From Clostridia bacterium (lineage in GTDB: Bacteria; Bacillota; Clostridia; Acetivibrionales; JAFADI01): DNA of 64,000 bases. Shown one piece after another: positions 2,657 through 44,450 of this stretch (positions are counted from its first letter, which is position 1; each line of letters begins with the position of its first letter). The DNA lies in assembly GCA_026417615.1 (NCBI GenBank), contig JAOACY010000120.1:24709-88708 (forward strand). Reading direction: 5' to 3'. A model generated the notes under the pieces. It had not been told where the DNA came from. It saw only the letters and a program-made list of their open reading frames with translations, and did not search any database. The position numbers were made by a program, and so were the translations under genes.

Positions 2657-3754
2657 AGAATGAGATATCATGCTTTTCAGGCTTTTGCCCTTAAATAATC
2701 CCATCAAAATATTTTTTAGCAGAAGAAGGGTTACAGGTCCTAGTATCAAGCCGGCAAACCCCAGAAGATTCAGTCCTGTATACATGGCCATGAGTGTCAG
2801 CAAAGGGTGTATGCCTATTTGTTCTCCGACAATTTTGGGCTCAATAAGCTGACGCACAATCAAAACAATGAAATACAGTATAAACAAAGACAGGCCCATT
2901 CTTATATCACCGGTAACTATGTTATAAAGCCCCCAAGGTATTAGGACCGTGCCGGTGCCTAGTATGGGAAGAGCATCCACTATGCTTATAACAAGAGCAA
3001 GGAGCAATGTGTACCTGACGCCTATAATTGTGAACCCGATGCTAAGCTCAGTAAATGTGATTGCCAGAAGTATGCACAAAGCCTTAAGGTATCCGAAGAA
3101 TGCAAAAAACATGTCATTTTTAATATCACGGAACTTCACAATCCATGACTCCGGAAACTGGGACACGAAAACATCTGCGATTTTCTCCCTGTCGCTGGCA
3201 AGAAAGTAGGTTGAAAGAATAGTAACTATAACAATTATAAGTCCCTGGGGTATTCCGCTTATACCTTTTATTATTTTGCCCAAAGGTTTGGACAGATCTC
3301 CAAGTATGCTTTCTATGTTCAGCTTATTGGGAAGCTGTGATTTCAAGCCTTCCAGGTTGCTTATTACTTCTTCAGGCAGCTCATTATACATATCTGTCGC
3401 CCTGTTTATTAGAGCGATTATTTCCTGATAAATTTGTGAAACATATACAGGAAGATGAAGCGAGAGCTCTCTTGCTTCCGCTATAAGCTTATTAATCAGA
3501 AGGAATAATACAGAACCAAAGGCAACAAGGACAATCAGCAGCGTAATGGCGGCAGCCAGCTTGCGGCGTATTTTGAATCTTGACGATAAAAACCTTATTA
3601 CAGGTTCCATTAGGGTAGCAACCAGGTAGGCTATCAAAAAGGGAGCAAAGAAAACAGCAAGCTTAAAACAAACAACAATTCCCGCCAGTATGCCTAATAC
3701 AATTAAAGCAAGCTTCAATACTTTCATTAAATCCATATTGTTTATTTTGACCAT
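2648..3754 (-). CDS. ytvI: AI-2E family (UPF0118) integral membrane protein, YtvI-like
   Basis: 368 aa and polytopic. The layout has a long central loop, and the C-terminal motifs (PILGTG..IPWG, EPKIVG..IG.HPL) match the AI-2E/YtvI family. Confidence 0.7.
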   Translation of the reverse strand: MVKINNMDLMKVLKLALIVLGILAGIVVCFKLAVFFAPFLIAYLVATLMEPVIRFLSSRFKIRRKLAAAITLLIVLVAFGSVLFLLINKLIAEARELSLHLPVYVSQIYQEIIALINRATDMYNELPEEVISNLEGLKSQLPNKLNIESILGDLSKPLGKIIKGISGIPQGLIIVIVTILSTYFLASDREKIADVFVSQFPESWIVKFRDIKNDMFFAFFGYLKALCILLAITFTELSIGFTIIGVRYTLLLALVISIVDALPILGTGTVLIPWGLYNIVTGDIRMGLSLFILYFIVLIVRQLIEPKIVGEQIGIHPLLTLMAMYTGLNLLGFAGLILGPVTLLLLKNILMGLFKGKSLKSMISHSEE

Positions 3755-3845
3755 TATTGTATTCCTTCAAGATTTATTATAATCTAATCAAGCAGACTAT
3801 ACTCTAAGTTTAAACCAGTGAGCATTAGCAGTCAACAAAAAAATG

Positions 3846-3874
3846 TTGATAAAAAGTATTTCATGTGTTATACT
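3846..3874 (+). promoter_or_regulatory. Candidate sigma-A promoter of rpsB
   Basis: TTGATA (3846-3851), a 17-nt spacer, then TGtTATACT extended -10 (3866-3874). Confidence 0.55.
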
Positions 3875-4009
3875 ACTACACGGAAAAATACACACATTGC
3901 ATGATTTGCAGAACGTTGCTCAAGGTCTGAAAGCAGAAGCGATTACAAACCTGGGTATTCTGCGGAAACGACTGCAATGGAGGTATAAAACGAACAGGAG
4001 GAGTTTTTA

Positions 4010-4774
4010 ATGTCAGTAATTTCAATGAAGCAACTGCTTGAAGCAGGCGTACACTTTGGTCACCAGACCAGAAGATGGAATCCCAAAATGGCCGAATACA
4101 TCTTTACAGAGCGTAACGGCATCTACATCATCGATCTTCAGAAGACAGTGAAAAAGGTAGAAGAGGCGTATTTATTCATCAGAGAAGTAGCGGCAAACGG
4201 TGAGGATGTGCTTTTTGTAGGAACAAAGAAGCAGGCTCAGGACTCAATCAAGGAAGAAGCTGAAAGGAGCGGTCAGTATTACGTTAACGCAAGATGGCTG
4301 GGCGGTATGCTGACAAACTTCAAGACAATCCGCAAAAGAATCGAAAGATTGAATCAGCTGGCTGACATGGAGAAGAACGGCATATTCGAAGTGTTTCCCA
4401 AAAAAGAAGTTATAAAGCTGAGGGCTGAAATGGAGAAGCTGGAGAAATATTTAGGCGGAATAAAGAACATGAAGAGGATTCCCGGAGCTTTATTCATAGT
4501 TGACCCAAAGAAAGAAAGGAATGCAATCCTTGAAGCAAGAAAGCTTGGAATACCTGTTGTTGCGATAGTAGATACCAACTGCGACCCCGATGAAGTGGAT
4601 TATGTGATTCCGGGCAATGACGATGCTATCAGAGCGGTTAAGCTTATAGCCGGAAAAATGGCTGATGCCATAATAGAAGCCCGCCAGGGAGAGCAGCTGT
4701 CTGAAACCTCGCAGGATGAACGTTCTGCGGATAATCTTGAAATTGAAGTTCCGGAAATTGAAACGGAAGAATAA
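4010..4774 (+). CDS. rpsB: 30S ribosomal protein S2
   Basis: [27 protein letters not shown] is the canonical S2 N-terminus. An AGGAGG RBS is present. Confidence 0.97.
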
Positions 4775-4780
4775 AAGTAT

Positions 4781-4983
4781 GATTCTACTCAAAGAACAGC
4801 TTTTCTCGGAACAAGATGCAAAAATCACTCGGCGAAGTTGAAGGAATTCCGAAGCCAAAATGCCATGGAGGGCATTTTGAGCATCACGTGACAGGATGTC
4901 ATATTGATACGTGCGAGGAATTGCAAGACAAGTCGATAGTGATTTCATCGAAGTTTCAGAAAATGGGTTCTTGCAGTAGAATC
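4781..4983 (+). mobile_element. Full-length (203 bp) MITE-like nested-palindrome repeat, copy A
   Basis: Terminal inverted repeats are GATTCTACTCAAAGAAC and GTTCTTGCAGTAGAATC. A direct AAGTAT is present at 4775-4780 and 4984-4989. Internal hairpins lie at 4857-4878 and 4889-4901. By hand alignment it is roughly 87 percent identical to the inverted copy at 44060-44262. Confidence 0.75.
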
Positions 4984-5045
4984 AAGTATAAAAAAAGCGT
5001 TTTAAAGTTAATAATTATGAATAGTTTATGTTTGGAGGAGTTAAC

Positions 5046-5693
5046 ATGATTACTGCAGATATGGTAAAACAGCTTCGCGAAAGAACCGGAGCAGGCATGA
5101 TGGACTGCAAGAAGGCTCTTAATGAATCGAACGGAGATATGGAAAAGGCAATCGAATATCTGAGGGAAAAGGGCTTGGCGGCTGCAGCAAAGAAAGCCGG
5201 AAGGATAGCTGCTGAAGGTATCGTTGATGCTTACATTCACGGAAACGGCAGAATCGGTGTTCTTATTGAAGTAAATATAGAAACTGACTTTGCTGCCAAA
5301 AACGAAGACTTCAGAAGCTTTGTAAGGGATATTGCAATGCAGATTGCGGCAAGCAAGCCGGAATATATAAGGAGAGAAGAGGTTCCTGCGGAGATTATCG
5401 AGAAGGAAAAAGAAATATTGAGGGCTCAGGCTCTTAATGAAGGTAAGCCTGAGAAAATAGTGGACAAAATGGTTGAAGGCAGAATTGAAAAGTTTTTCAA
5501 AGAGGTTTGTCTCCTTGAGCAGCCTTTTATAAAGGATCCGGACAGAACTGTTCTCCAGCTTTTGAATGAAAAGATTGCAACAATCGGAGAAAATATCAAT
5601 ATCAGAAGATTCGTGAGATTTGAAAGAGGCGAAGGTCTTGCCAAGAAGGAAGAGAATTTCGCCGAAGAAGTAATGAAGCAGATCGGCGGCTGA
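5046..5693 (+). CDS. tsf: Elongation factor Ts (short form)
   Basis: [25 protein letters not shown] is the canonical EF-Ts UBA-like N-terminus. ATG 5046 follows a GGAGG RBS. Confidence 0.95.
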
Positions 5694-6549: not shown

Positions 6550-7107
6550 ATGTCTAAGGAAGCGTATAAACATATGGAAGAGAAAATGAAAAAAACAATT
6601 CATGCTTTGAAGGAGAACCTTGCAGGAATTAGAGCTGGAAGAGCCAATCCTGCAATACTTGATAAAGTTGCAGTAGACTATTATGGCGTTCCGACTCCAA
6701 TAAACCAGCTAGGAAACATATCTGTTCCCGAAGCCAGGATTATTTTAATACAGCCATGGGATGCAAAGCTTTTGAAGGAAATTGAAAAAGCTATTCAAAA
6801 GTCTGATATAGGCATCAACCCCTCCAATGACGGCAAGGTGATAAGGCTTGTTTTCCCGCCTTTGACAGAAGAAAGAAGAAAAGAACTGACGAAGGTGGTT
6901 AAAAAGGACGGAGAGGAAGCAAAAGTAGCTATCAGATCCATAAGACGAGATGCGGTTGAAGATGTGAAGGTACAGAAAAAGAACGGGGAAATAACTGAGG
7001 ACGATTTGAAGGATATTGAGAAGGAAATACAAAATATAACTGATAAGTACATAGCAGAAATAGACAAGATTGTTGAGGCTAAGGACAAAGAAATTATGGA
7101 AGTGTGA
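6550..7107 (+). CDS. frr: Ribosome recycling factor
   Basis: 185 aa. [21 protein letters not shown] is the canonical RRF sequence. Confidence 0.95.
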
Positions 7108-9004: not shown

Positions 9005-10171
9005 ATGGGTGGAAACATTTCTATTTTAGGTTCTACAGGGTCAATTGGAGTTCAGACTCTGGATGTCGCCAGAAATCTTGGACTTAAGGTATCGGGCCTT
9101 GCAGCCGGTACAAATATTGACCTGCTGGAAAAACAGATCAGGGAGTTCAAGCCCTGTGCCGCCGCTGTAGCGGATGAAAAGCTTGCAAAAGTACTGCGTG
9201 ACAGGGTAGGGGATTTGGGCACGAAAATCCATGCCGGTGTTGAAGGAATGAATATCGTAGCCTCTTTGGAAGATGTAGATACAGTGGTTGCTTCTGTTGT
9301 GGGAACTTCGGGCTTGATTCCCACACTTGAGGCTATAAGAAGCGGTAAGGATATTGCCCTTGCAAACAAGGAAACTCTCGTAACCGCGGGCAGTGTTGTT
9401 ATAGAAGAAGCGTTAAGACATAACGTAAGAATTCTTCCTGTTGACAGCGAGCATTCTGCTATTTTCCAATGTATGATGGGAAACAGCCTGAAAGATATTT
9501 CGAAACTGATAATAACTGCATCCGGAGGACCCTTCAGGGGCAAACACCTTGAAGAACTCAAGGAGGTTACTCCTGCCCAGGCTTTAAAACATCCCAACTG
9601 GAGCATGGGGGCCAAGATAACCATTGATTCCTCCACTCTCATGAACAAGGGACTCGAGGTAATAGAAGCCAAATGGCTTTTTGATGTTGAACTGAACAAA
9701 ATTCAGGTAATGGTTCATCCACAGAGCATAATACACTCAATGGTCGAGTTTGTTGACGGATCCGTTATGGCCCAGCTGGGGCAGCCGGATATGAGGATAC
9801 CCATACAGCTGGCTCTTACATACCCTAAAAGGGAGTTCAACAGTTTTTCAAGGCTCAATCTGCTGGAGGCTGGAACTCTGACTTTTGAGGAGCCGGATCA
9901 GGAAGCGTTCCCGTGTCTGAAGCTTGCCTATGAGGCGGGCCGCTGCGGAGGCACAATGCCGGCTGTTTTAAATGCTGCAAATGAGATTGCCGTTGATTTG
10001 TTTATTAAAGAAAAAATTGGATTTATAGATATACCGGGAATTATAGAAAATGTAATGTCCAGACACATTGTGAATAATTGCCCAAACCTTGAAGATATAA
10101 TAGAAGCAGACAGGTGGGCAAGGGAAACGGCAATGCAATTGGTGAGACAAAAGTGTACAGCTATGCTTTAG
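9005..10171 (+). CDS. dxr: 1-deoxy-D-xylulose-5-phosphate reductoisomerase
   Basis: ILGSTGSIG, LANKE.LV, DSEHSAIFQC and HPNWSMG motifs are present. Confidence 0.95.
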   Translation: MGGNISILGSTGSIGVQTLDVARNLGLKVSGLAAGTNIDLLEKQIREFKPCAAAVADEKLAKVLRDRVGDLGTKIHAGVEGMNIVASLEDVDTVVASVVGTSGLIPTLEAIRSGKDIALANKETLVTAGSVVIEEALRHNVRILPVDSEHSAIFQCMMGNSLKDISKLIITASGGPFRGKHLEELKEVTPAQALKHPNWSMGAKITIDSSTLMNKGLEVIEAKWLFDVELNKIQVMVHPQSIIHSMVEFVDGSVMAQLGQPDMRIPIQLALTYPKREFNSFSRLNLLEAGTLTFEEPDQEAFPCLKLAYEAGRCGGTMPAVLNAANEIAVDLFIKEKIGFIDIPGIIENVMSRHIVNNCPNLEDIIEADRWARETAMQLVRQKCTAML

Positions 10172-17429: not shown

Positions 17430-17546
17430 GAATTATTTTTTGTATTGTAGATCGTTACAATATATTATAATAGAATTAAACAACAATCCGATAGAAAATT
17501 GATGTTAAATTTGTGTAAAACAAAACCGTCAATTTAACACAATCGT

Positions 17547-17579
17547 CAAAATGCCACAGACGGCATTTTGAGCATCACG
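17547..17579 (+). repeat. Solo core-hairpin module of the repeat family (copy E)
   Basis: CAAAATGCC-acagac-GGCATTTTGAGCATCACG matches the centre of copies A (4856-4888) and B. The terminal repeats are absent. Confidence 0.6.
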
Positions 17580-17610: not shown

Positions 17611-18333
17611 ATGCAAGGTTACATAATTTTGTTGATTTCAAGCTTTATTGCTGCATTAATTTCCGGTGCAGCCGGTTTTGGCGGTGCTTTACTGCTATTA
17701 CCGGTGCTCACGCTGTATCTAGGCGTTGAGATGGCTGTGCCTGTGCTGACAATAGCCCAGCTTGTTGGGAACATATCAAGGATGAGTATAGCTATTAAAC
17801 AAATTGAGTGGAAAAAAGCAGGCTTGTTTTTAATTACTGCTTTGCCCCTCACTGCTATTGGCGCATTTTCCTTTGTCAGCTTTCCAAAAGATATTGTTAC
17901 AAGAGCAGTCGGAGGAGTATTAATTGCGCTTGTTTTACTGAAATATTATAATATATTCGCTTTTCAGGCAAGCAATAAGCTAATACTTTTTGGGGGTGCT
18001 GCAGTAGGCCTGTTGTCAGGACTTGCGGGAAGCGCAGGCCCCTTGGGCGCGGCTGTGTTTTTATCATTAGGACTTCCGCCTGTGGCCTATATTGCAAGTG
18101 AGGCAACCACTGCCACAGCGATGCATATATTAAAAATAATCATTTACGGGAAGCTTATCGCCATACCGCTTTATGCATGGATTGCAGGAGGAATAATGGG
18201 AGCTGCCATGATAGCAGGAACATACACTGCAAAGAGATTAATCAGTAATATGAGCAAGGACAGATTTCAAAAATATGTGGCGATATTACTATGCATAGTT
18301 GGTTTATATATGCTTGTATTCGGAGCAAAGTAA
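17611..18333 (+). CDS. TauE/SafE family sulfite/anion exporter-like membrane protein
   Basis: 240 aa with about 7-8 TM segments. The two halves are Gly-rich (GAAGFGGALLLLP and GLAGSAGPLG), which is typical of TauE/SafE (DUF81). Confidence 0.7.
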   Translation: MQGYIILLISSFIAALISGAAGFGGALLLLPVLTLYLGVEMAVPVLTIAQLVGNISRMSIAIKQIEWKKAGLFLITALPLTAIGAFSFVSFPKDIVTRAVGGVLIALVLLKYYNIFAFQASNKLILFGGAAVGLLSGLAGSAGPLGAAVFLSLGLPPVAYIASEATTATAMHILKIIIYGKLIAIPLYAWIAGGIMGAAMIAGTYTAKRLISNMSKDRFQKYVAILLCIVGLYMLVFGAK

Positions 18334-26350: not shown

Positions 26351-26366
26351 AAATTGGGTGACATAT

Positions 26367-27305
26367 ATGGAAGTTATTTACGGGGTTAAAAATGATAAAC
26401 AGATTCAAGGCTATACCGGTGTCGGACTTGGGAATTTTGACGGTCTGCATATAGGCCACATGTCTCTTATAAACATTCTTATCAGGGAATCAAAGCTTAA
26501 TGGCTTTAAAAGCGTTGTATATACTTTTACCAAGCATCCTGAAAATATTTTGAGGAAGAAGCTGTTTACTCCTTTGTTAACCAAAGAAAGCAAGAAAATT
26601 GAACTTCTCGGAGAGACTGCCTTGAACTATCTATATTTTGACGAATTTGACGAAGGCTACTCAAGGAAGACACCTGAGAGCTTCGTAAAAAGCATTCTGG
26701 TTGAAAAGCTGAAAGCAAAAATCGTTGTGGCAGGCTTTGACTACAGATTCGGATATAAGGGTCAGGGGGATGCGGCTTTATTAAAGGAGTTTGGAAAGAA
26801 ATACAAATTTCATGTGATAATTATACCTCCAATTAAGATTGGCGATGAAATTGTCAGCAGCACCAAAATCCGCCAAAATATTGCCCAGGGCTGCATGGAT
26901 GAGGTTTTTAAGCTCCTTGGCAGGCATTATTCCATAACCGCAGAGGTAATCAGCGGAAGGAGAGTCGGGAACACAATCGGCTTTCCCACAGCCAATATCA
27001 GTCCCGAAGGATATCTGATTCTTCCTCAAAATGGTGTTTATATTACGAAAACTCTCCTTAACGGAGAACTTTATGAAAGTATAACCAATATTGGCTACAA
27101 CCCTACCTTTGAGGAGGAAAAAAGGCTTACGGTAGAGACTCACATCATTGATTTCGAAAGAAATATTTACGGAGAAAAGATCGAGGTCTTTTTTCTTCAG
27201 AAAATACGTGACGAAGTAAAATATAATTCAATAGAAGAGCTTAAGGAACAAATCAAAAGGGATATGAAAAAGGCTCGTGATTATTTCAGCTTTTACGGCA
27301 ACTGA
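26367..27305 (+). CDS. ribF: Bifunctional riboflavin kinase / FAD synthetase
   Basis: GNFDGLHIGH is present. The C-terminal kinase motifs are GFPTANI, YGE.IEV.F and IR.E.KY.S.EELK. Confidence 0.93.
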   Translation: MEVIYGVKNDKQIQGYTGVGLGNFDGLHIGHMSLINILIRESKLNGFKSVVYTFTKHPENILRKKLFTPLLTKESKKIELLGETALNYLYFDEFDEGYSRKTPESFVKSILVEKLKAKIVVAGFDYRFGYKGQGDAALLKEFGKKYKFHVIIIPPIKIGDEIVSSTKIRQNIAQGCMDEVFKLLGRHYSITAEVISGRRVGNTIGFPTANISPEGYLILPQNGVYITKTLLNGELYESITNIGYNPTFEEEKRLTVETHIIDFERNIYGEKIEVFFLQKIRDEVKYNSIEELKEQIKRDMKKARDYFSFYGN

Positions 27306-27351: not shown

Positions 27352-27438
27352 GATTCTACCGCAAGAACAGCTTTTCTTGGGACAAGATGAATAAATCACT
27401 CGACGAAGTTTCAGAAAATGGGTTTTTGCGATAGAATC
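27352..27438 (+). mobile_element. 87-bp internal-deletion derivative of the repeat family (copy C)
   Basis: Both terminal repeats are kept (GATTCTACCGCAAGAAC and TTTTTGCGATAGAATC), along with the left and right subterminal modules. The roughly 116-bp centre is missing, and the junction falls at a CGAAGTT motif that is directly repeated in copy A. Confidence 0.7.
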
Positions 27439-32268: not shown

Positions 32269-33996
32269 ATGTTAAGATTATTCAGATTTTTAAAGCCTTA
32301 TATTTTATCTTTATCTATAATGCTGGTGCTTATTTTTATGCAGACACTGGCTGACTTATACCTGCCAACCCTTATGGCGGCAATTATTGACCGGGGAGTG
32401 ATGAAAAAGGATACGTTTTTTATTGTCAGAACGGGCGGATTTATGCTGCTTATTGCCGCAGGAGGAGTTTTGTGCGCCGTTGCGGCCAGCTTTCTGTCAG
32501 CCAAGGCTTCCTCGGGATTTGGCAGGATAATTCGCAGTAATGTTTTTAAACGCATTGAAAGCTTTTCGTTAAACGAATTTGACAAGCTGGGCACTTCAAC
32601 TCTTATAACAAGGACTACAAACGATATAACCCAGGTTCAGACGGTCACAATGATGATTATGCGTATGATGATAAGCGCGCCTATAATGGCGGTTGGAGGC
32701 ATTGTTATGGCTTTTTCAAAGGATAAGCCTCTTACTGTCGTCCTTGCTGTTGCGTTGCCTTTGCTTGCTGCTGCTATTACTCTTATAGCAGTCAAGGGCT
32801 TGCCGCTTTTCAAGCTGATGCAGGTAAAGCTTGATAAATTGAATCTGGTTCTGAGGGAGAATCTCACGGGAATAAGGGTCATCAGGGCCTTTAACAGGGT
32901 TGACTACGAGAAGTCGCGCTTTAATGAGGCAAATGCCGATCTGACAGACAACTATATAAGGGTTAACAGGATTATGGCGTTGATGATGCCTTTGCTTATG
33001 CTCATAATGAACTTCACAACCATTGCCATAATATGGTTTGGGGTTATTCGGATAGATTCGGGAGAAATGCAGGTCGGCTCTCTGATTGCATTTGTTCAGT
33101 ATTCCGCTTTGATTATGTTTTCCATGCTCATGCTTTCCATGATGTTTGTAATGGTGCCTCGTGCACAGGCTGCCGCAGTCAGGATAAATGAAGTCCTTGA
33201 GGTTGTACCAGAGATAAATGATCCCAAGGTATGCAAGGATACGGGAAGCAAGAGGGGACATATTGAATTCAGGGATGTAACCTTCAGTTATCATGGTGCT
33301 GAACAGCCTGCACTAAGGAACATTTCCTTCAGTGCGAAGCCCGGTGAGGTTACAGCCATTATAGGAAGCACAGGCTCAGGAAAATCAACCCTCATAAACC
33401 TTATACCCAGGTTTTATGATGTTGACAGCGGGAGTGTAATGGTTGACGGAGTGGATGTCCGAGAGATGAGCCAGAGCAGCTTAAGGAGCAGGATTGGTTT
33501 TGTGCCTCAGAAAAATGTGCTGTTTTCAGGGACCATAAGAGAAAATATAAGAGTAGGAAAGGATAATGCTTCTGACAGCGAGATTGAGAAGGCTGCAGAA
33601 ATTGCTCAGGCAATAGAATTTATTTCCGGTATGGAGGATGGCTTTCAGCACAACATATCACAGGGAGGAGCAAACATATCCGGAGGACAGAAGCAGAGGC
33701 TTTCAATTGCTCGTGCCCTGGTAAGGAAGCCTGAAATATATATTTTCGATGACAGCTTTTCAGCTATTGATTTTAAAACGGATGCAAAGCTGCGTGCCGC
33801 ATTGAAACAGGAAACAGAGGGTTCAACTGTATTGATTGTTGCTCAGAGGGTAGGCACTGTAATGGATGCAAACAAAATCATTGTTCTGGACAACGGCGCG
33901 ATTGTCGGTATGGGAACTCACAGTGAGCTCCTGAAAACCTGTGCGGTATACCGTGAAATCGTAGCCTCGCAGCTGCCGGAGGAGGAAACAGTATGA
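32269..33996 (+). CDS. ABC exporter half-transporter (TMD-NBD), degenerate-site subunit
   Basis: Six TM segments plus an NBD. Walker A is GSTGSGKST and the signature is ISGGQKQRLSIARAL. Walker B reads IYIFDDSFS, with Asp in place of the catalytic Glu. The ATG follows an AAGGTGA RBS. Confidence 0.88.
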   Translation: MLRLFRFLKPYILSLSIMLVLIFMQTLADLYLPTLMAAIIDRGVMKKDTFFIVRTGGFMLLIAAGGVLCAVAASFLSAKASSGFGRIIRSNVFKRIESFSLNEFDKLGTSTLITRTTNDITQVQTVTMMIMRMMISAPIMAVGGIVMAFSKDKPLTVVLAVALPLLAAAITLIAVKGLPLFKLMQVKLDKLNLVLRENLTGIRVIRAFNRVDYEKSRFNEANADLTDNYIRVNRIMALMMPLLMLIMNFTTIAIIWFGVIRIDSGEMQVGSLIAFVQYSALIMFSMLMLSMMFVMVPRAQAAAVRINEVLEVVPEINDPKVCKDTGSKRGHIEFRDVTFSYHGAEQPALRNISFSAKPGEVTAIIGSTGSGKSTLINLIPRFYDVDSGSVMVDGVDVREMSQSSLRSRIGFVPQKNVLFSGTIRENIRVGKDNASDSEIEKAAEIAQAIEFISGMEDGFQHNISQGGANISGGQKQRLSIARALVRKPEIYIFDDSFSAIDFKTDAKLRAALKQETEGSTVLIVAQRVGTVMDANKIIVLDNGAIVGMGTHSELLKTCAVYREIVASQLPEEETV

Positions 33997-35858
33997 GCGC
34001 AGCAGGAAGAGGACCGCAAGTTTCGCAGAGGCAAGGGGGTGACATCCAAAAAGGCGGACCGGGAGGAGCCCTCGTGAGACCCGTAGAAAAAGCAAAAAAT
34101 TTCAGAGGAACTTTAAAAAGGCTTTTAGGATATATCAAGCCGCATAGAATCAAATTGGCTGTGGTTTTCATCTTTGCAATAGCCAGCACAGCCTTCACTA
34201 TATCAGCACCTATGATAACAGGGCTTGCTATGGACAAGATCTATGAAGGAATAAAAACAGCGGGCGGAAGAATTGATTTTACAGGAATAGCACAGATTTT
34301 GCTTGGCCTTGCCGTTATATATTTTCTCAGCTCTTTATTTGGATTTGTTATGCAGTATGTAATGTCGTATGTTGCGCAGATGACTGTATATGATATGAGG
34401 AAGGATGTGTCAGACAAGCTTGGCAGGCTGCCTCTCAAATATTATGATTCCAGGCCCCATGGAGAAATATTAAGCAGAGTGACCAATGATATCGATACGA
34501 TATCCACGACCCTTCAGCAAAGCTTGACTCAGCTTATTACTTCAATTGTCCAGATTTTGGGATATATAGCTATGATGCTGATTATCAGTCCAACCATGAC
34601 TTTGGTTGTGCTTGCCACCTTGCCGGCGTATATTTTTGTAACAAGCTTTGTGGCAAAGAAATCCCAAAGGTATTTTGCAGCCCAGCAAAAGGCCATGGGT
34701 GAGCTGAGCGGCCATGTGGAAGAGATGTTTACGGGACATAAGGTTGTCAAGGCCTTCGGGCGTGAACAAGAATCAATCGAAAGGTTTGAGAAAATAAACC
34801 AAAGGCTTTATGAGTCAAGCTGGAAGGCACAGTTTGTTTCAGGCATAATGTTTCCTATGATGAACTTTGTCAGCAACCTGGGGTATGTTATGATTAGCGT
34901 TCTGGGGGGGATATGGATTGCCGGAGGGAGGCTTAACCTCGGGGACATAACTGCCTTCATACAGTATTCAAGATCCTTTACAATGCCTATAGTTCAGACG
35001 GCAAATATTGCAAACATAATTCAGTCTACAGTGGCTTGCGCCGAGAGGGTTTTTGAAGTGCTGGATGAGGAAGAGGAAGCTGCCGACCAAGTTAACGCAA
35101 AAGAATTGGCAGATGCTGCCGGCATTGTCAAATTTGAAAATGTTGCGTTCAGGTACAAAGAGGATGTGCCTCTTATTGAGAATCTTAACCTCGATGTAAA
35201 GCCGGGACACACCATTGCCATAGTTGGACCTACAGGAGCGGGGAAAACAACCCTGGTGAACCTGCTTATGCGGTTTTACGAGCTAAATGGAGGGAAAATT
35301 ACCATTGATGGAGTCGATATAAAGGATATGCGCCGCGAAGGACTAAGAAGTCTTTTCGGAATGGTGCTGCAGGATACATGGCTTTTCAACGGCACTATAC
35401 GTGATAATATTGCATATGGACGAGCCGGGGCAACTGAGGAGGAAATTGTAAAGGCCGCAAAAGCCGCTTACGCAGACCGCTTTATAAGGACTCTTCCAGA
35501 TGGGTACGACACTATATTGAATGAAGAGGCCACAAACATATCACAGGGGCAAAAGCAGCTGCTGACTATTGCCCGTGCCATACTTGCGAATCCCAGCATT
35601 TTGATTCTTGATGAAGCCACAAGCAGCGTTGATACAAGAACTGAGGTTCTAATTCAAAAGGCGATGGAGAACCTGATGAAGGGCAGAACCAGTTTTGTAA
35701 TTGCTCACAGGCTTTCTACCATAAGGGATGCAGAACTTATTCTTGTAATGAGCAATGGGCGCATTATTGAGAAGGGGAGCCACAAGCAGCTTATGGCAAA
35801 AGGCGGAGTCTACGCGGAATTGTACAACAGCCAGTTTTCTGCTGCAGGTAAAGCTTAG
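33993..35858 (+). CDS. ABC exporter half-transporter (TMD-NBD), consensus-site subunit
   Basis: Walker A is GPTGAGKTT and Walker B with catalytic Glu is ILILDEATS. The signature is degenerate (ISQGQKQ). The start overlaps the upstream stop codon (ATGA). Confidence 0.88.
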   Translation: MSAAGRGPQVSQRQGGDIQKGGPGGALVRPVEKAKNFRGTLKRLLGYIKPHRIKLAVVFIFAIASTAFTISAPMITGLAMDKIYEGIKTAGGRIDFTGIAQILLGLAVIYFLSSLFGFVMQYVMSYVAQMTVYDMRKDVSDKLGRLPLKYYDSRPHGEILSRVTNDIDTISTTLQQSLTQLITSIVQILGYIAMMLIISPTMTLVVLATLPAYIFVTSFVAKKSQRYFAAQQKAMGELSGHVEEMFTGHKVVKAFGREQESIERFEKINQRLYESSWKAQFVSGIMFPMMNFVSNLGYVMISVLGGIWIAGGRLNLGDITAFIQYSRSFTMPIVQTANIANIIQSTVACAERVFEVLDEEEEAADQVNAKELADAAGIVKFENVAFRYKEDVPLIENLNLDVKPGHTIAIVGPTGAGKTTLVNLLMRFYELNGGKITIDGVDIKDMRREGLRSLFGMVLQDTWLFNGTIRDNIAYGRAGATEEEIVKAAKAAYADRFIRTLPDGYDTILNEEATNISQGQKQLLTIARAILANPSILILDEATSSVDTRTEVLIQKAMENLMKGRTSFVIAHRLSTIRDAELILVMSNGRIIEKGSHKQLMAKGGVYAELYNSQFSAAGKA

Positions 35859-35873
35859 AGGCATAATAATATT

Positions 35874-35915
35874 GATTCTACTGCAATTGAGAAAATGGGT
35901 TGTTGCAGTAGAATC
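35874..35915 (+). mobile_element. 42-bp minimal derivative of the repeat family (copy D)
   Basis: GATTCTACTGCAA ... TTGCAGTAGAATC are perfect 13-bp inverted termini. They enclose the GAAAATGGGT subterminal motif. The copy lies 16 nt after the ABC exporter stop codon. Confidence 0.65.
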
Positions 35916-42673: not shown

Positions 42674-42701
42674 AAGGAAGCAGGGCTGCCTGCTTCCTTT
42701 T
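42672..42701. terminator. Bidirectional terminator between convergent genes
   Basis: AAAAGGAAGCAGG-gctg-CCTGCTTCCTTTT forms a 13-bp stem with A and T runs on either side. Confidence 0.8.
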
Positions 42702-43929
42702 AGAATATATTCTTGTAGGACACTGCATTCCTGCCTTTGTGCTTTGACTGGTAGAGACCGTCATCAGCGGAAGCTATAAGCCCTTTGGCGTCTAAGGCGT
42801 CTGTGGGGTAGTGGGCTAAACCTATGGATACTGTAAAGTGAGGAGACTCAGTTTCAGCCACTTTCTTTCTAAACCGCTCTGCGATAAGCCTTGCCTGTGG
42901 GACAGAAGTTTCCGGCAATACTATTATGAATTCGTCCCCACCGTATCTTCCAAGGCTGTCTATTTCTCTTATACTCCTTAAGGCTATGAGGGCAAGCTTC
43001 TTAATGCACTTGTCGCCCTCGATATGACCAAGTGTATCATTAATTGTTTTAAAATTGTCAATATCAAACATTATAATTGAGAATTCCCTGGTTTCCTTTG
43101 ACTCAATAAGCTTATTTATTGTTTCCATTATTGCAGCCTTGTTATAAGCTTTTGTAAGAGCATCGGTTCTTGCAATATTGCTTAGTTTTTCGTTTGAACG
43201 TTCAATCTCGAGTACTCGCTTTCTGACTTCAAGGTTGAGGTTTTTGTCTACTGCCGCAACCTTTTTCTCTGCCTCCTCAAGCATATTGATAAGTTTCAGG
43301 CCTATTTTCTTGTTGAAATAAAAGCAAAACAGGCAATATGCGGCCAGCCTTAATCCCGGCGAAATATAGGCTGTTAAATACACGGGATGTGATAATGGGA
43401 CTAAACTTGAAGCTGTAATGCAAGCTCCGGCCCATGACAGGACAACTTTGCCGTCTTTTTCGTTTCGGAGTTTTATTATGTATAGCAGAAACAACACCAT
43501 TATTATAATACTCCTTATATGAAAAGCCTTTATATACTGAGGCAAAACAGAATAAGTTTCAATTGCCCAGATAAGGCTGAATGTAAAGGCTGTAAGAAGT
43601 ATTTGAAATGTTTTTTTCTGGCTGATACCCGGCTTAATCCATATTATCAGCAGCAAGGCTGCCATCAGACATAAATCCGACATGGCAGCGAAGGGATATG
43701 CATTGCCTGCATTAGCAGTAAAAAATGAAGCAATATTTAAGGAGAGCGGAATAATAAAAGCATAGCCCAAAAGTTTTACTTGAGAGTGCTTTCTGATTAG
43801 TAAAAAAGCATAGGTGAAAATGAAAAACGAAAAGCAAAGTGACACTACCAGTGAAATCTTATTGGCAGCAATAGAATAAAACATAGAAAAAACCTCCTGG
43901 TTAATATTGCTATGAATAGTAATCGACAT
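42700..43929 (-). CDS. Membrane-anchored diguanylate cyclase (GGDEF)
   Basis: The N-terminal domain is polytopic with about 7 TM segments, followed by a coiled linker. The GGDEF domain has an intact active site, RYGGDEF. An RxxD I-site (REID) lies 5 residues upstream of it. Confidence 0.9.
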   Translation of the reverse strand: MSITIHSNINQEVFSMFYSIAANKISLVVSLCFSFFIFTYAFLLIRKHSQVKLLGYAFIIPLSLNIASFFTANAGNAYPFAAMSDLCLMAALLLIIWIKPGISQKKTFQILLTAFTFSLIWAIETYSVLPQYIKAFHIRSIIIMVLFLLYIIKLRNEKDGKVVLSWAGACITASSLVPLSHPVYLTAYISPGLRLAAYCLFCFYFNKKIGLKLINMLEEAEKKVAAVDKNLNLEVRKRVLEIERSNEKLSNIARTDALTKAYNKAAIMETINKLIESKETREFSIIMFDIDNFKTINDTLGHIEGDKCIKKLALIALRSIREIDSLGRYGGDEFIIVLPETSVPQARLIAERFRKKVAETESPHFTVSIGLAHYPTDALDAKGLIASADDGLYQSKHKGRNAVSYKNIF

Positions 43930-44059
43930 TTTTAAACATTTCGATTATACATAGAATATACCATATTTAATTAAAAGGAAAGGACATACCTCTACTTTTA
44001 ATTTTATATTCTTAGATATTGAGGAATGTCCCAACAAGGTTTTTTGTTATTTTAAAACT

Positions 44060-44262
44060 GATTCTGCTGCAAAAACCCATTTTCGGAAACTTCGATGAAA
44101 TCACTAACACCTTGTCTTGCAATTTCTCGCCCGCATCAATGTGGCATCCTGCCACGTGATGCTCAAAATGCCGTCCGTGGCATTTTGGCATCGGAATTAC
44201 TGCAACTTCGGTGAGTGATTTATGCATCTTGCTTCAAGAAAAGCTATTTTTGCAGTAGAATC
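44060..44262 (-). mobile_element. Full-length (203 bp) MITE-like nested-palindrome repeat, copy B, inverted relative to copy A
   Basis: The termini are GATTCTGCTGCAAAAAC and TTTTTGCAGTAGAATC. A direct AAAACT is present at 44054-44059 and 44263-44268. Internal hairpins lie at 44141-44155 and 44165-44186. Confidence 0.75.
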
Positions 44263-44282
44263 AAAACTATGATTTGCTTTTT

Positions 44283-44450
44283 TTACCCTCTCCACTTCTT
44301 AATCATATAGCCCCAGAACATTCCCTTTGCGAATGACAATGCAAGAATGCCTGCGGCAGCCGCAGCCGTCAGTGTAAGTGTATTTTCATTGTTTTCCTCT
44401 GCTTGCTTTTTATATACTCTTGGATGCCTTCTATATTTTGTATATTCCAT
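44283..44450 (-). CDS. Unannotated 55-aa small membrane protein candidate
   Basis: The translation is MEYTKYRRHPRVYKKQAEENNENTLTLTAAAAAGILALSFAKGMFWGYMIKKWRG. A GGAGGG RBS lies 8 nt upstream. The N-terminus is basic and one hydrophobic helix is present. It is too short to appear in the ORF track. Confidence 0.4.
   Translation of the reverse strand: MEYTKYRRHPRVYKKQAEENNENTLTLTAAAAAGILALSFAKGMFWGYMIKKWRG

Follow-up and report, generated by a model that had tools for sequence, protein, structure and literature searches.

The spacer between rpsB and tsf, the genes of ribosomal protein S2 and elongation factor Ts, contains in one uncultured Clostridia genome (GenBank assembly GCA_026417615.1, contig JAOACY010000120.1, positions 24,709 to 88,708) a 203-bp repeat that we interpret, with a probability of roughly 0.75, as a lineage-specific, non-autonomous MITE (miniature inverted-repeat transposable element) that carries an RNA core resembling the orphan motif TwoAYGGAY (Rfam RF01731) and is co-transcribed with rpsB and tsf. 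The whole stretch of DNA analyzed, 64,000 nucleotides long and referred to here as the window, holds this copy, designated c1, and four further loci of the same repeat, as located by blastn and nhmmer, giving five loci in the 64 kb (Table 1). A MITE-like insertion at this junction had been proposed in an initial annotation made from the letters of the window, and the proposal is now supported by the further copies, by their flanking duplications and by an empty site in close relatives.

The rpsB-tsf spacer of the window is 271 nt long and harbours the 203-bp element together with a directly repeated hexamer, AAGTAT, on either side. The extent of the element, its start 6 nt past the rpsB stop codon, its imperfect 17-bp terminal inverted repeats and the two flanking hexamers were all borne out as initially annotated. 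Of the 17 positions of the terminal repeats, GATTCTACTCAAAGAAC and GTTCTTGCAGTAGAATC, 15 can pair with each other, and in a longer alignment the inverted repeat reaches 27 nt at 81%. The element is AT-rich and nearly self-complementary along its entire length, and its RNA is predicted to form a single long hairpin with interruptions (-74.3 kcal/mol, z = -6.6); none of 200 shuffled sequences folded as well. Both of the interior hairpins noted before are present, but their earlier coordinates were off by 1-2 nt. A chance origin of the flanking repeat together with the terminal repeats is excluded: the frequency of identical 6-mers spaced 203 nt apart in the window is 3.6e-4 per position, or 2.8e-3 if the flanks compared are AT-rich, the independent full-length copy c2 has a perfect flanking repeat of its own, and sequences within 3 mismatches of the 17-nt terminal repeat number seven in the window against 0.18 expected. 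A separate 19-nt direct repeat, 79% identical at a spacing of 205 nt, is common to the 3' end of rpsB (4742-4760, ATTGAAGTTCCGGAAATTG) and the right arm of the element (4947-4965, ATCGAAGTTTCAGAAAATG), probably by chance.

When searching with Tsf homologues, we found the closest element-free relatives at two loci, L081 and L082, where Tsf is 93% identical and the rpsB-tsf spacer measures 154 nt; among the relatives whose identity is 86-88% are Acetivibrio species and Clostridium thermosuccinogenes. At a distance of about 55 nt upstream of tsf, the spacer of L081 and L082 reads ...GTGATAAAAGTATAAATATCC..., and the window reads ...GAATAAAAGTAT-element-AAGTATAAAAAAAGC... at the insertion (ATAAAAGTAT-element-AAGTATAAA in its immediate surroundings). 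Taking the element and one repeat out of the window sequence leaves ATAAAAGTATAAA, a 13-nt identity to L081 that continues collinearly to tsf with one 1-nt gap, and both relatives carry a single uninterrupted ATAAAAGTATAAA, which is the empty site. The initial annotation had raised the objection that the hexamers might be part of an ancestral sequence also present at element-free junctions. Since the empty site has one continuous ATAAAAGTATAAA with a single copy of the repeat, as a target duplication predicts, this objection does not arise. Related sequence is found in the same part of the spacer in L003 (GAAAGTATATAAG) and L083 (GAGTATAAAGG), and a second AAGTAT in L081 lies 50 nt further upstream, where it does not align to the insertion site. 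Direct reading and local alignment to the 93%-identical relative were used for this comparison, a MAFFT alignment of the window spacer with L001, L002 and L003 being uninformative because these loci are too divergent.

The duplications differ by site, with perfect repeats of AAGTAT at c1 and AGTTTT at c2 and degenerate ones at the two shortened copies, where TAATCT and AAATTT agree at 4 of 6 positions (c3) and ATAATA(T) and ATAATA match at 6 of 6 with a 1-nt offset (c4). Further copies with flanking duplications of their own, which the initial annotation had suggested looking for, thus exist (c2), together with at least 18 variants bearing an open reading frame (ORF) in the metagenome-assembled genome (MAG) from which the window comes. 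Terminal repeats are kept in all four copies c1 to c4, and the deleted derivatives c3 and c4 retain the ability to fold as well. Direct reading of the sequence shows that each arm of the element has a CGAAGTT direct repeat and that the two are joined by the deletion in c3. The fifth locus, a solitary core fragment that matches the R1 model with 27.4 bits, is probably a decayed copy; it sits between divergent genes, upstream of the ORF at 17611.

All four copies with terminal repeats have a T before GATTC and an A after GAATC. Because the ORFs of the annotated variants leave the element at its right end, their next codons report the flanking bases: read by hand, the first right-flank base is A in 15 of 15 readable variants (codons for K, N, I, or S as AGY), and the sixth, where the codon determines it, is T in three and Y in seven, with none contradicting. 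The filled site can therefore be written A-N4-T / GATTC...GAATC / A-N4-T. This may represent a 203-bp element with a 6-bp duplication and a strict A...T target preference, or alternatively a 205-bp element, TGATTC...GAATCA, that has TG...CA ends and may have made a 4-bp duplication (AGTA at c1, GTTT at c2) in an A/NNNN/T target. The 6-bp target-site duplication initially described is thus real as a site-specific duplication, but its length can equally be read as 4 bp. The element inserted into an AT-rich A-N4-T site directly after the rpsB stop codon and duplicated its target, and we infer that it was mobilized by a transposase whose gene lies in another part of the genome. A length below ~500 bp without a transposase gene, terminal repeats, duplications that vary by site, dispersed copies and an empty site are all found here, and these are the features by which MITEs are recognized.

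To probe the size of the family, the translated element ORF was searched against 5.8 billion protein clusters. It matched 18 clusters with 29 sequences, every one of them a hypothetical protein (N2489_...) of the same MAG, spread over contigs of 14 different lengths, with five annotated as 'partial' at contig ends, as would be expected of a repeat that interrupts the assembly. One ORF-bearing copy, N2489_10745, is on the same contig as the window and, judged by locus-tag spacing, probably outside it. The same search of protein clusters gave no match in any other genome. The exact 25-nt right-end pattern GAAAATGGGTTNTTGCNNNAGAATC had no match in genome, metagenome and viral contig collections, BLAST of the element against plasmids and phages gave none, and no terminal-repeat match occurred in 1.5 Mb of other loci, including all rpsB-tsf loci of relatives. 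The family has dozens of copies, plus internally deleted derivatives, in a single genome of uncultured Clostridia; it is therefore abundant in one lineage and, within the scope of these searches, absent elsewhere.

Table 1. Coordinates in the window of the rpsB-tsf junction, the repeat copies and the reading frames that run through them.
Feature	Position	Strand	Remarks
rpsB (ribosomal protein S2), upstream gene	4010-4774	+	ORF; stop TAA at 4772-4774; 84-85% identical to RpsB of L001 and L003
Flanking direct repeat AAGTAT, left copy	4775-4780		alternative reading: A + 4-bp duplication AGTA + element T
Copy c1, 203 bp, GATTC...GAATC	4781-4983	+ (sense)	long imperfect hairpin, TwoAYGGAY-like core
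Left terminal inverted repeat, GATTCTACTCAAAGAAC	4781-4797	+	
ORF through c1, 77 aa	4816-5049	+	
Apical hairpin 1	4856-4879	+	9-bp stem, loop AUGGAG (AYGGAY-like; ACGGAC in c2)
Apical hairpin 2	4888-4902	+	GUGACA-GGA-UGUCAU; 6-bp stem, GGA in loop
Right terminal inverted repeat, GTTCTTGCAGTAGAATC	4967-4983	+	
Flanking direct repeat AAGTAT, right copy	4984-4989		
tsf (elongation factor Ts), downstream gene	5046-5693	+	ORF; P0001 100% identical
Solitary core fragment, 35 nt	17545-17579	+	hairpin 1 plus GAGCAUCACG (GAGCATCACG); loop mutated to ACAGAC; no terminal repeats
Copy c3, 87-bp internal-deletion derivative	27352-27438	+	starts 46 nt past stop of ORF 26358-27305
Copy c4, 42-bp mini-derivative	35874-35915	+	little beyond the two termini; starts 15 nt past stop of ORF 33993-35858
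ORF through c2, 71 aa	44012-44227	-	
Copy c2, full length	44060-44262	-	87% identical to c1; AGTTTT at 44263-44268 and 44054-44059
Surroundings of c2	44283-44450; 42700-43929	-	c2 starts 20 nt past stop of 55-aa ORF (44283-44450) and lies upstream of 409-aa ORF (42700-43929)

Reading the neighboring genes by eye, we take the ORF preceding c3 to be ribF-like and that preceding c4 to encode an ABC transporter, and the 409-aa ORF next to c2 is presumably a GGDEF protein.

Comparing the two full-length copies, we found that 27 of 203 positions differ, 12 among the 136 paired positions and 15 among the 67 unpaired ones. The 12 paired differences touch eight base pairs, all of which stay paired: four are compensatory double changes (G-C to A-U twice, G-U to C-G, and A-U to G-C) and the other four are single changes through G-U. 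One of the double changes, the A-U that is G-C in c2, lies in apical hairpin 2. Mismatches between the two arms are also asymmetric, the internal loops being rich in purines on the sense strand only, where purine-purine outnumber pyrimidine-pyrimidine mismatches by 14 to 2 in c1 and by 12 to 4 in c2, and the sense strand is predicted to fold more stably than the antisense strand (-74.3 versus -64.5 kcal/mol for c1, -82.1 versus -79.3 kcal/mol for c2), with the antisense strand folding very well too (z = -5.6 and -8.6). Each of the four copies c1 to c4 starts shortly after the stop codon of a co-oriented gene (6, 20, 46 and 15 nt, respectively), and three of these four lie between co-directional genes. 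From the compensatory changes, the purine asymmetry and the sense orientation, we infer that the element is transcribed within host mRNAs and that its RNA fold is under selection. Each of these lines of evidence is small, resting on two full sequences and four orientations, and together they favor selection acting on the transcript.

It is also conceivable, and in our judgment unlikely without being negligible, that the repeat is a purely selfish MITE with a functionless RNA, in which the hairpin is maintained at the DNA level by a transposase recognizing extended or subterminal inverted repeats, or by intra-palindrome repair and gene conversion, and the TwoAYGGAY likeness is convergent or incidental. 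Any ordinary MITE would show terminal repeats and flanking duplications, and likewise deletion derivatives and assembly breaks, and the sub-threshold Rfam scores described below, the very good fold of the antisense strand and a subset of variants that seem to have lost the second GGA fit such an explanation. DNA symmetry, however, predicts neither G-U intermediates on one strand nor the purine bias of 14:2 and 12:4, the consistent sense orientation behind genes is left unexplained, and some of the compensatory changes fall in the apical hairpins, at a distance from the termini that a transposase would bind.

The RNA core was compared with known families in an Rfam search of the whole window, run with a permissive threshold. 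A single match had E < 1, that to RF01731, TwoAYGGAY, for which the gathering score is 43 bits: c2 scores 42.7 bits (E = 0.0017 for the window), significant but sub-threshold, with the full model aligned, and c1 scores 28.2 bits at 4805-4972. With the same model, canonical human-gut TwoAYGGAY copies reach 127-135 bits and a Pseudomonas-type copy 58.9 bits. Like TwoAYGGAY, the element has a long closing stem and two adjacent GGA-loop hairpins joined by AG; both occur in Clostridia, and canonical members are likewise dispersed multi-copy repeats. A consensus fold for c1 and c2 comprises 68 pairs, most of them in the long enclosing stem. In loop 1, the ACGGAC of c2 fits AYGGAY and the AUGGAG of c1 misses the last base; most ORF variants encode K-C-H-G-W-H, which corresponds to ...UGCC-AUGGNU-GGCA... 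and would be AYGGAY if N is A. Loop 2, CAGGAU in both copies, keeps the GGA and is one base shorter than in the model, so that it is not AYGGAY. The element termini, (T)GATTCTACTGCAAGAAC, are unrelated to the ...AATATTCAATTAAACAACAAT of the gut-type unit. In the reciprocal direction, a covariance model of the two window cores recovered the window copies and the solitary fragment, and also a structured element in L086 and L087. We treat the window copies as a divergent TwoAYGGAY relative, or at least as a close structural analogue. The initial annotation had not recognized the element as a named family; it is not wholly without a name, as its core is a near-threshold match to a named one.

TwoAYGGAY was described by Weinberg et al. 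2010 (PMC2864571) from 216 representatives in human gut metagenomes, Clostridiales and gamma-proteobacteria and rated 'probably RNA, not cis-regulatory'; supplement 1 of that paper calls stem P1 'often very large (e.g., 24 base pairs...)' and remarks on that and on the two loops only. It was later proposed as a CsrA-binding RNA of Clostridia (Gardner and Eldai 2015, PMC4333381) and was termed 'relatively unexplored' in a 2025 preprint (bioRxiv 10.1101/2024.12.11.627843). Mobility, terminal repeats and target duplications are not mentioned for it in PMC2864571 and its supplement, in PMC4333381, in that preprint or in the Rfam 15 paper, and a 2024 review of MITEs makes no mention of CsrA, Clostridia or bcr1. 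Canonical TwoAYGGAY RNAs are dispersed repeats as well, with termini unrelated to those in the window. In the consulted part of the flank-containing alignment of Weinberg et al., Psychromonas ingrahamii has at least five copies with conserved flanks. The human-gut copies lie mid-way in a much longer palindromic repeat, and a scan of metagenome contigs with the gut-type end gave at least 120 loci (L104-L223, e.g. L158:3594-4171 and L147:5092-5433), many at contig ends. The gut unit is ~355 bp long and often forms head-to-head dimers of ~750 bp that center on a GC-rich palindrome, GGGCGGAATTGTGCG-TAAA-GCGCACAATTCCGCCC. Among the three complete monomers recovered, no clear target duplication was found. 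One match of the gut-type end in viral contigs was discarded as chance.

A relative with 91% identical Tsf has a 211-nt near-perfect hairpin (L086:900-1110, L087:~6730-6940; -104 kcal/mol, z = -9) with the apex GCGCC-AUGGAU-GGCGC and a 13-mer, GGCGAATTGTGCG, in common with the end of the human-gut TwoAYGGAY unit. It has no Rfam TwoAYGGAY match at E <= 0.1 and could belong to the same super-family as a further divergent member. In prophage-like IMG/VR contigs with a GC content of ~60% (L088-L102), a high-GC TwoAYGGAY variant (58.9 bits), which we take to be of the Pseudomonas type, occupies a fixed position ~800 nt from a C4 antisense RNA (e.g. L089:2832-2951 and 3723-3809) and is followed by a conserved ...GTAAC/GTGAGCCGCCGTCAGGGCGGAA... 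motif, as are the Psychromonas copies.

Several observations weigh against our interpretation of the window repeat as a transcribed MITE with a TwoAYGGAY-like core. Both copies score below the RF01731 gathering score of 43 bits and so formally fail Rfam membership, loop 2 (CAGGAU) and loop 1 of c1 (AUGGAG) misfit AYGGAY, the second GGA seems to have been lost from about one in four ORF variants (V-T-R-R-H), and the reciprocal model finds just one canonical TwoAYGGAY site, weakly (L099, E = 0.009). On the side of selection, the covariation count, from two full-length DNA copies, is small and does not amount to a formal test, the orientation bias rests on three or four copies (roughly p = 0.06-0.12), and the excess of G-U over A-C is modest. 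In the window and 1.5 Mb of other loci we found no autonomous element and no transposase, of the IS3 family or any other, with the element termini (TGATTCTACTGCAAGAAC), and no csrA gene was found in the window.

A broader idea, which we put forward as speculative and rather improbable, is that the two-GGA-hairpin RNA is a selected cargo module that different lineages carry on mobile backbones unrelated to one another; neither the human-gut unit nor the gamma-proteobacterial repeats share the termini found here (TGATTCTAC...). If this were true, transposition would supply the 3' ends and spacers of operons with sites at which a CsrA-like RNA-binding protein binds, or at which RNases process the transcript, and would rewire post-transcriptional control, here within the core translation operon rpsB-tsf, and the orphan TwoAYGGAY motif would be explained.

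For the junction itself, no terminator-like site was found on the coding strand between rpsB and tsf, either in the element or in the rest of the spacer, so the element very probably lies inside the rpsB-tsf transcript, as judged from sequence. Without the element the spacer would be 62 nt long. In the relatives, the rpsB-tsf spacer has a terminator-like hairpin followed by a U-run (L081:466-619, L001:~9860-9960, L003:~9850-9930, L083:9821-10000 and L084:9897-10000), for example CCGACTTCAGTC...GGCTGAAGTCGG followed by TTTTT in L001. The sequences of these hairpins vary between relatives, the window genome is without one, and its rpsB stop codon adjoins the insertion site. The initial annotation had suggested that the element could uncouple or attenuate the expression of tsf. 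The role that we rank first is that a very stable 3' or intercistronic hairpin would change how the neighboring cistrons are processed and decay: such a hairpin might block 3' exonucleases for rpsB, or it could be an RNase III-type cleavage site that separates rpsB from tsf. Ranked second, with lower confidence, is that the two GGA loops would bind a CsrA-type protein. Upstream of rpsB, the window (3843-4009) has no Rfam match to a known rpsB leader; L084, L086 and L087 show a weak match to t44, the rpsB leader, at 28.6 bits against a gathering score of 44.

The best functional analogy appears to be with the Correia elements of Neisseria and the ERIC/IRU elements of enterobacteria, which similarly are 100-170 bp long, have terminal inverted repeats and target duplications, insert into intergenic or 3' positions and form long RNA hairpins. 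These are non-coding MITEs transcribed together with their neighbors, and their processing by RNase III (Correia, cleaved at the paired termini) or RNase E (ERIC) alters the stability of flanking mRNAs (PMC10969869). Based on this precedent, the most likely effect of the window element would be altered processing or decay of the rpsB and tsf cistrons. There is no sequence relation, however, and the two-GGA-loop core has no counterpart in Correia or ERIC/IRU. Correia elements duplicate TA and carry an integration host factor (IHF) site and promoters. The Firmicutes repeats bcr1 (Bacillus cereus group) and RUP/BOX/SPRITE (Streptococcus pneumoniae) are also small and dispersed, lying in transcribed intergenic regions with stable predicted RNA structures, but are unrelated in sequence and have other termini and duplication lengths. 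The flanking duplication of bcr1, TTTAT, is short and AT-rich, an insertion sequence (IS) presumably mobilizes RUP in trans, and none of bcr1, RUP, BOX and SPRITE is known to be linked to an Rfam structured-RNA family with protein-binding-like loops. For the GGA-containing hairpin loops, the likeness is to the CsrA-sequestering RNAs of the CsrB/RsmZ type (Rfam clan CL00106, which includes RF01731), and hairpin 2 (ACA-GGA-UGU) resembles the CsrA consensus from in vitro selection (SELEX), RUACARGGAUGU. The window element differs in having only two GGA sites and in being embedded in mRNAs, rather than forming an independent small RNA gene. The only promoter-like site in the element, TTCAGA-16-TAGAAT at the right end (4955-4982, 9 of 12 positions), proved no better than shuffled sequence and terminator-like sites are absent, and the element is for these reasons not regarded as such a gene.

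As for the mode of transposition, IS3-family elements as defined by ISfinder have 5'-TG...CA-3' ends and 3-5-bp duplications. The window repeat agrees with this (ends TG...CA, duplications AGTA and GTTT) if the flanking T and A belong to the element, but the same string is equally read as a 6-bp duplication with an A-N4-T preference. Movement as a REP/REPIN-type element by a RAYT (an IS200/IS605-like Y1 transposase), or by another hairpin-dependent single-strand mechanism, instead of a DDE-type cut or paste event, is in our view highly improbable. The whole element is a hairpin, the structure that such enzymes recognize; but the site-specific flanking repeats (AAGTAT, AGTTTT) and an empty site with a single copy speak against it, as REPINs and IS200/IS605 elements are not known to make target duplications or to have terminal inverted repeats at their exact ends, and the element is AT-rich and 203 bp long, in contrast to short GC-rich REP hairpins. 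No RAYT gene was seen among the window ORFs, judged by eye without a protein-family scan.

We also considered whether the repeat encodes a small Cys/His-rich protein of ~60-77 aa, as is implied by the way NCBI annotated the MAG. Both window copies, and most of the 18 annotated variants, have a reading frame that stays open across the element, and in the public MAG annotation (PGAP) these ORFs are entered as hypothetical proteins (N2489_10800 and N2489_10980, with 16 or more clusters besides). However, the differences between c1 and c2 in the annotated frame are 4 synonymous and 16 non-synonymous, so that their proportions are equal (pS = pN = 0.119; pN/pS = 1.0), and the C-terminus is different in every copy because it is translated from flanking DNA. 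Furthermore, there is no Shine-Dalgarno sequence upstream of the ATG, the deletion in c3 shifts the reading frame, the antisense strand has an equally open frame, no ORF variant has a domain in the precomputed Pfam column, and the sample is biased since only open-frame copies get annotated. A protein product is thus very doubtful, and the initial annotation was right that the element has no coding capacity of its own. Given the pN/pS of 1.0 and the flank-derived C-termini, the hypothetical-protein annotations are spurious, and ~29 such entries in the public MAG annotation can be flagged accordingly.

Finally, a dedicated, conserved cis-regulatory RNA of the rpsB-tsf operon, such as an S2- or EF-Ts-responsive structure or an attenuator, would suit a highly structured sequence inside a ribosomal-protein operon whose relatives carry a hairpin and U-run in the spacer, but it is refuted by the absence of the element from all seven relatives' spacers that were read (L001, L003 and, at a Tsf identity of 91-93%, three different sequences), by the unrelated sequences of the relatives' hairpins, and by the near-identical copies beside unrelated genes and at least 18 variants elsewhere.

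Bacteria are known to harbor a class of small mobile hairpin repeats, so the insertion is in itself ordinary. What the window repeat would add is a tie between TwoAYGGAY, a 16-year-old orphan RNA motif and proposed CsrA sponge, and a clear mobile-element footprint, moving the question from what this RNA gene regulates to why mobile repeats keep an RNA fold. The insertion lies within one of the most highly expressed operons, at a place where relatives have a terminator-like hairpin, and it offers a natural experiment on the expression of S2 relative to EF-Ts when a structure of about -70 kcal/mol lies between their genes.

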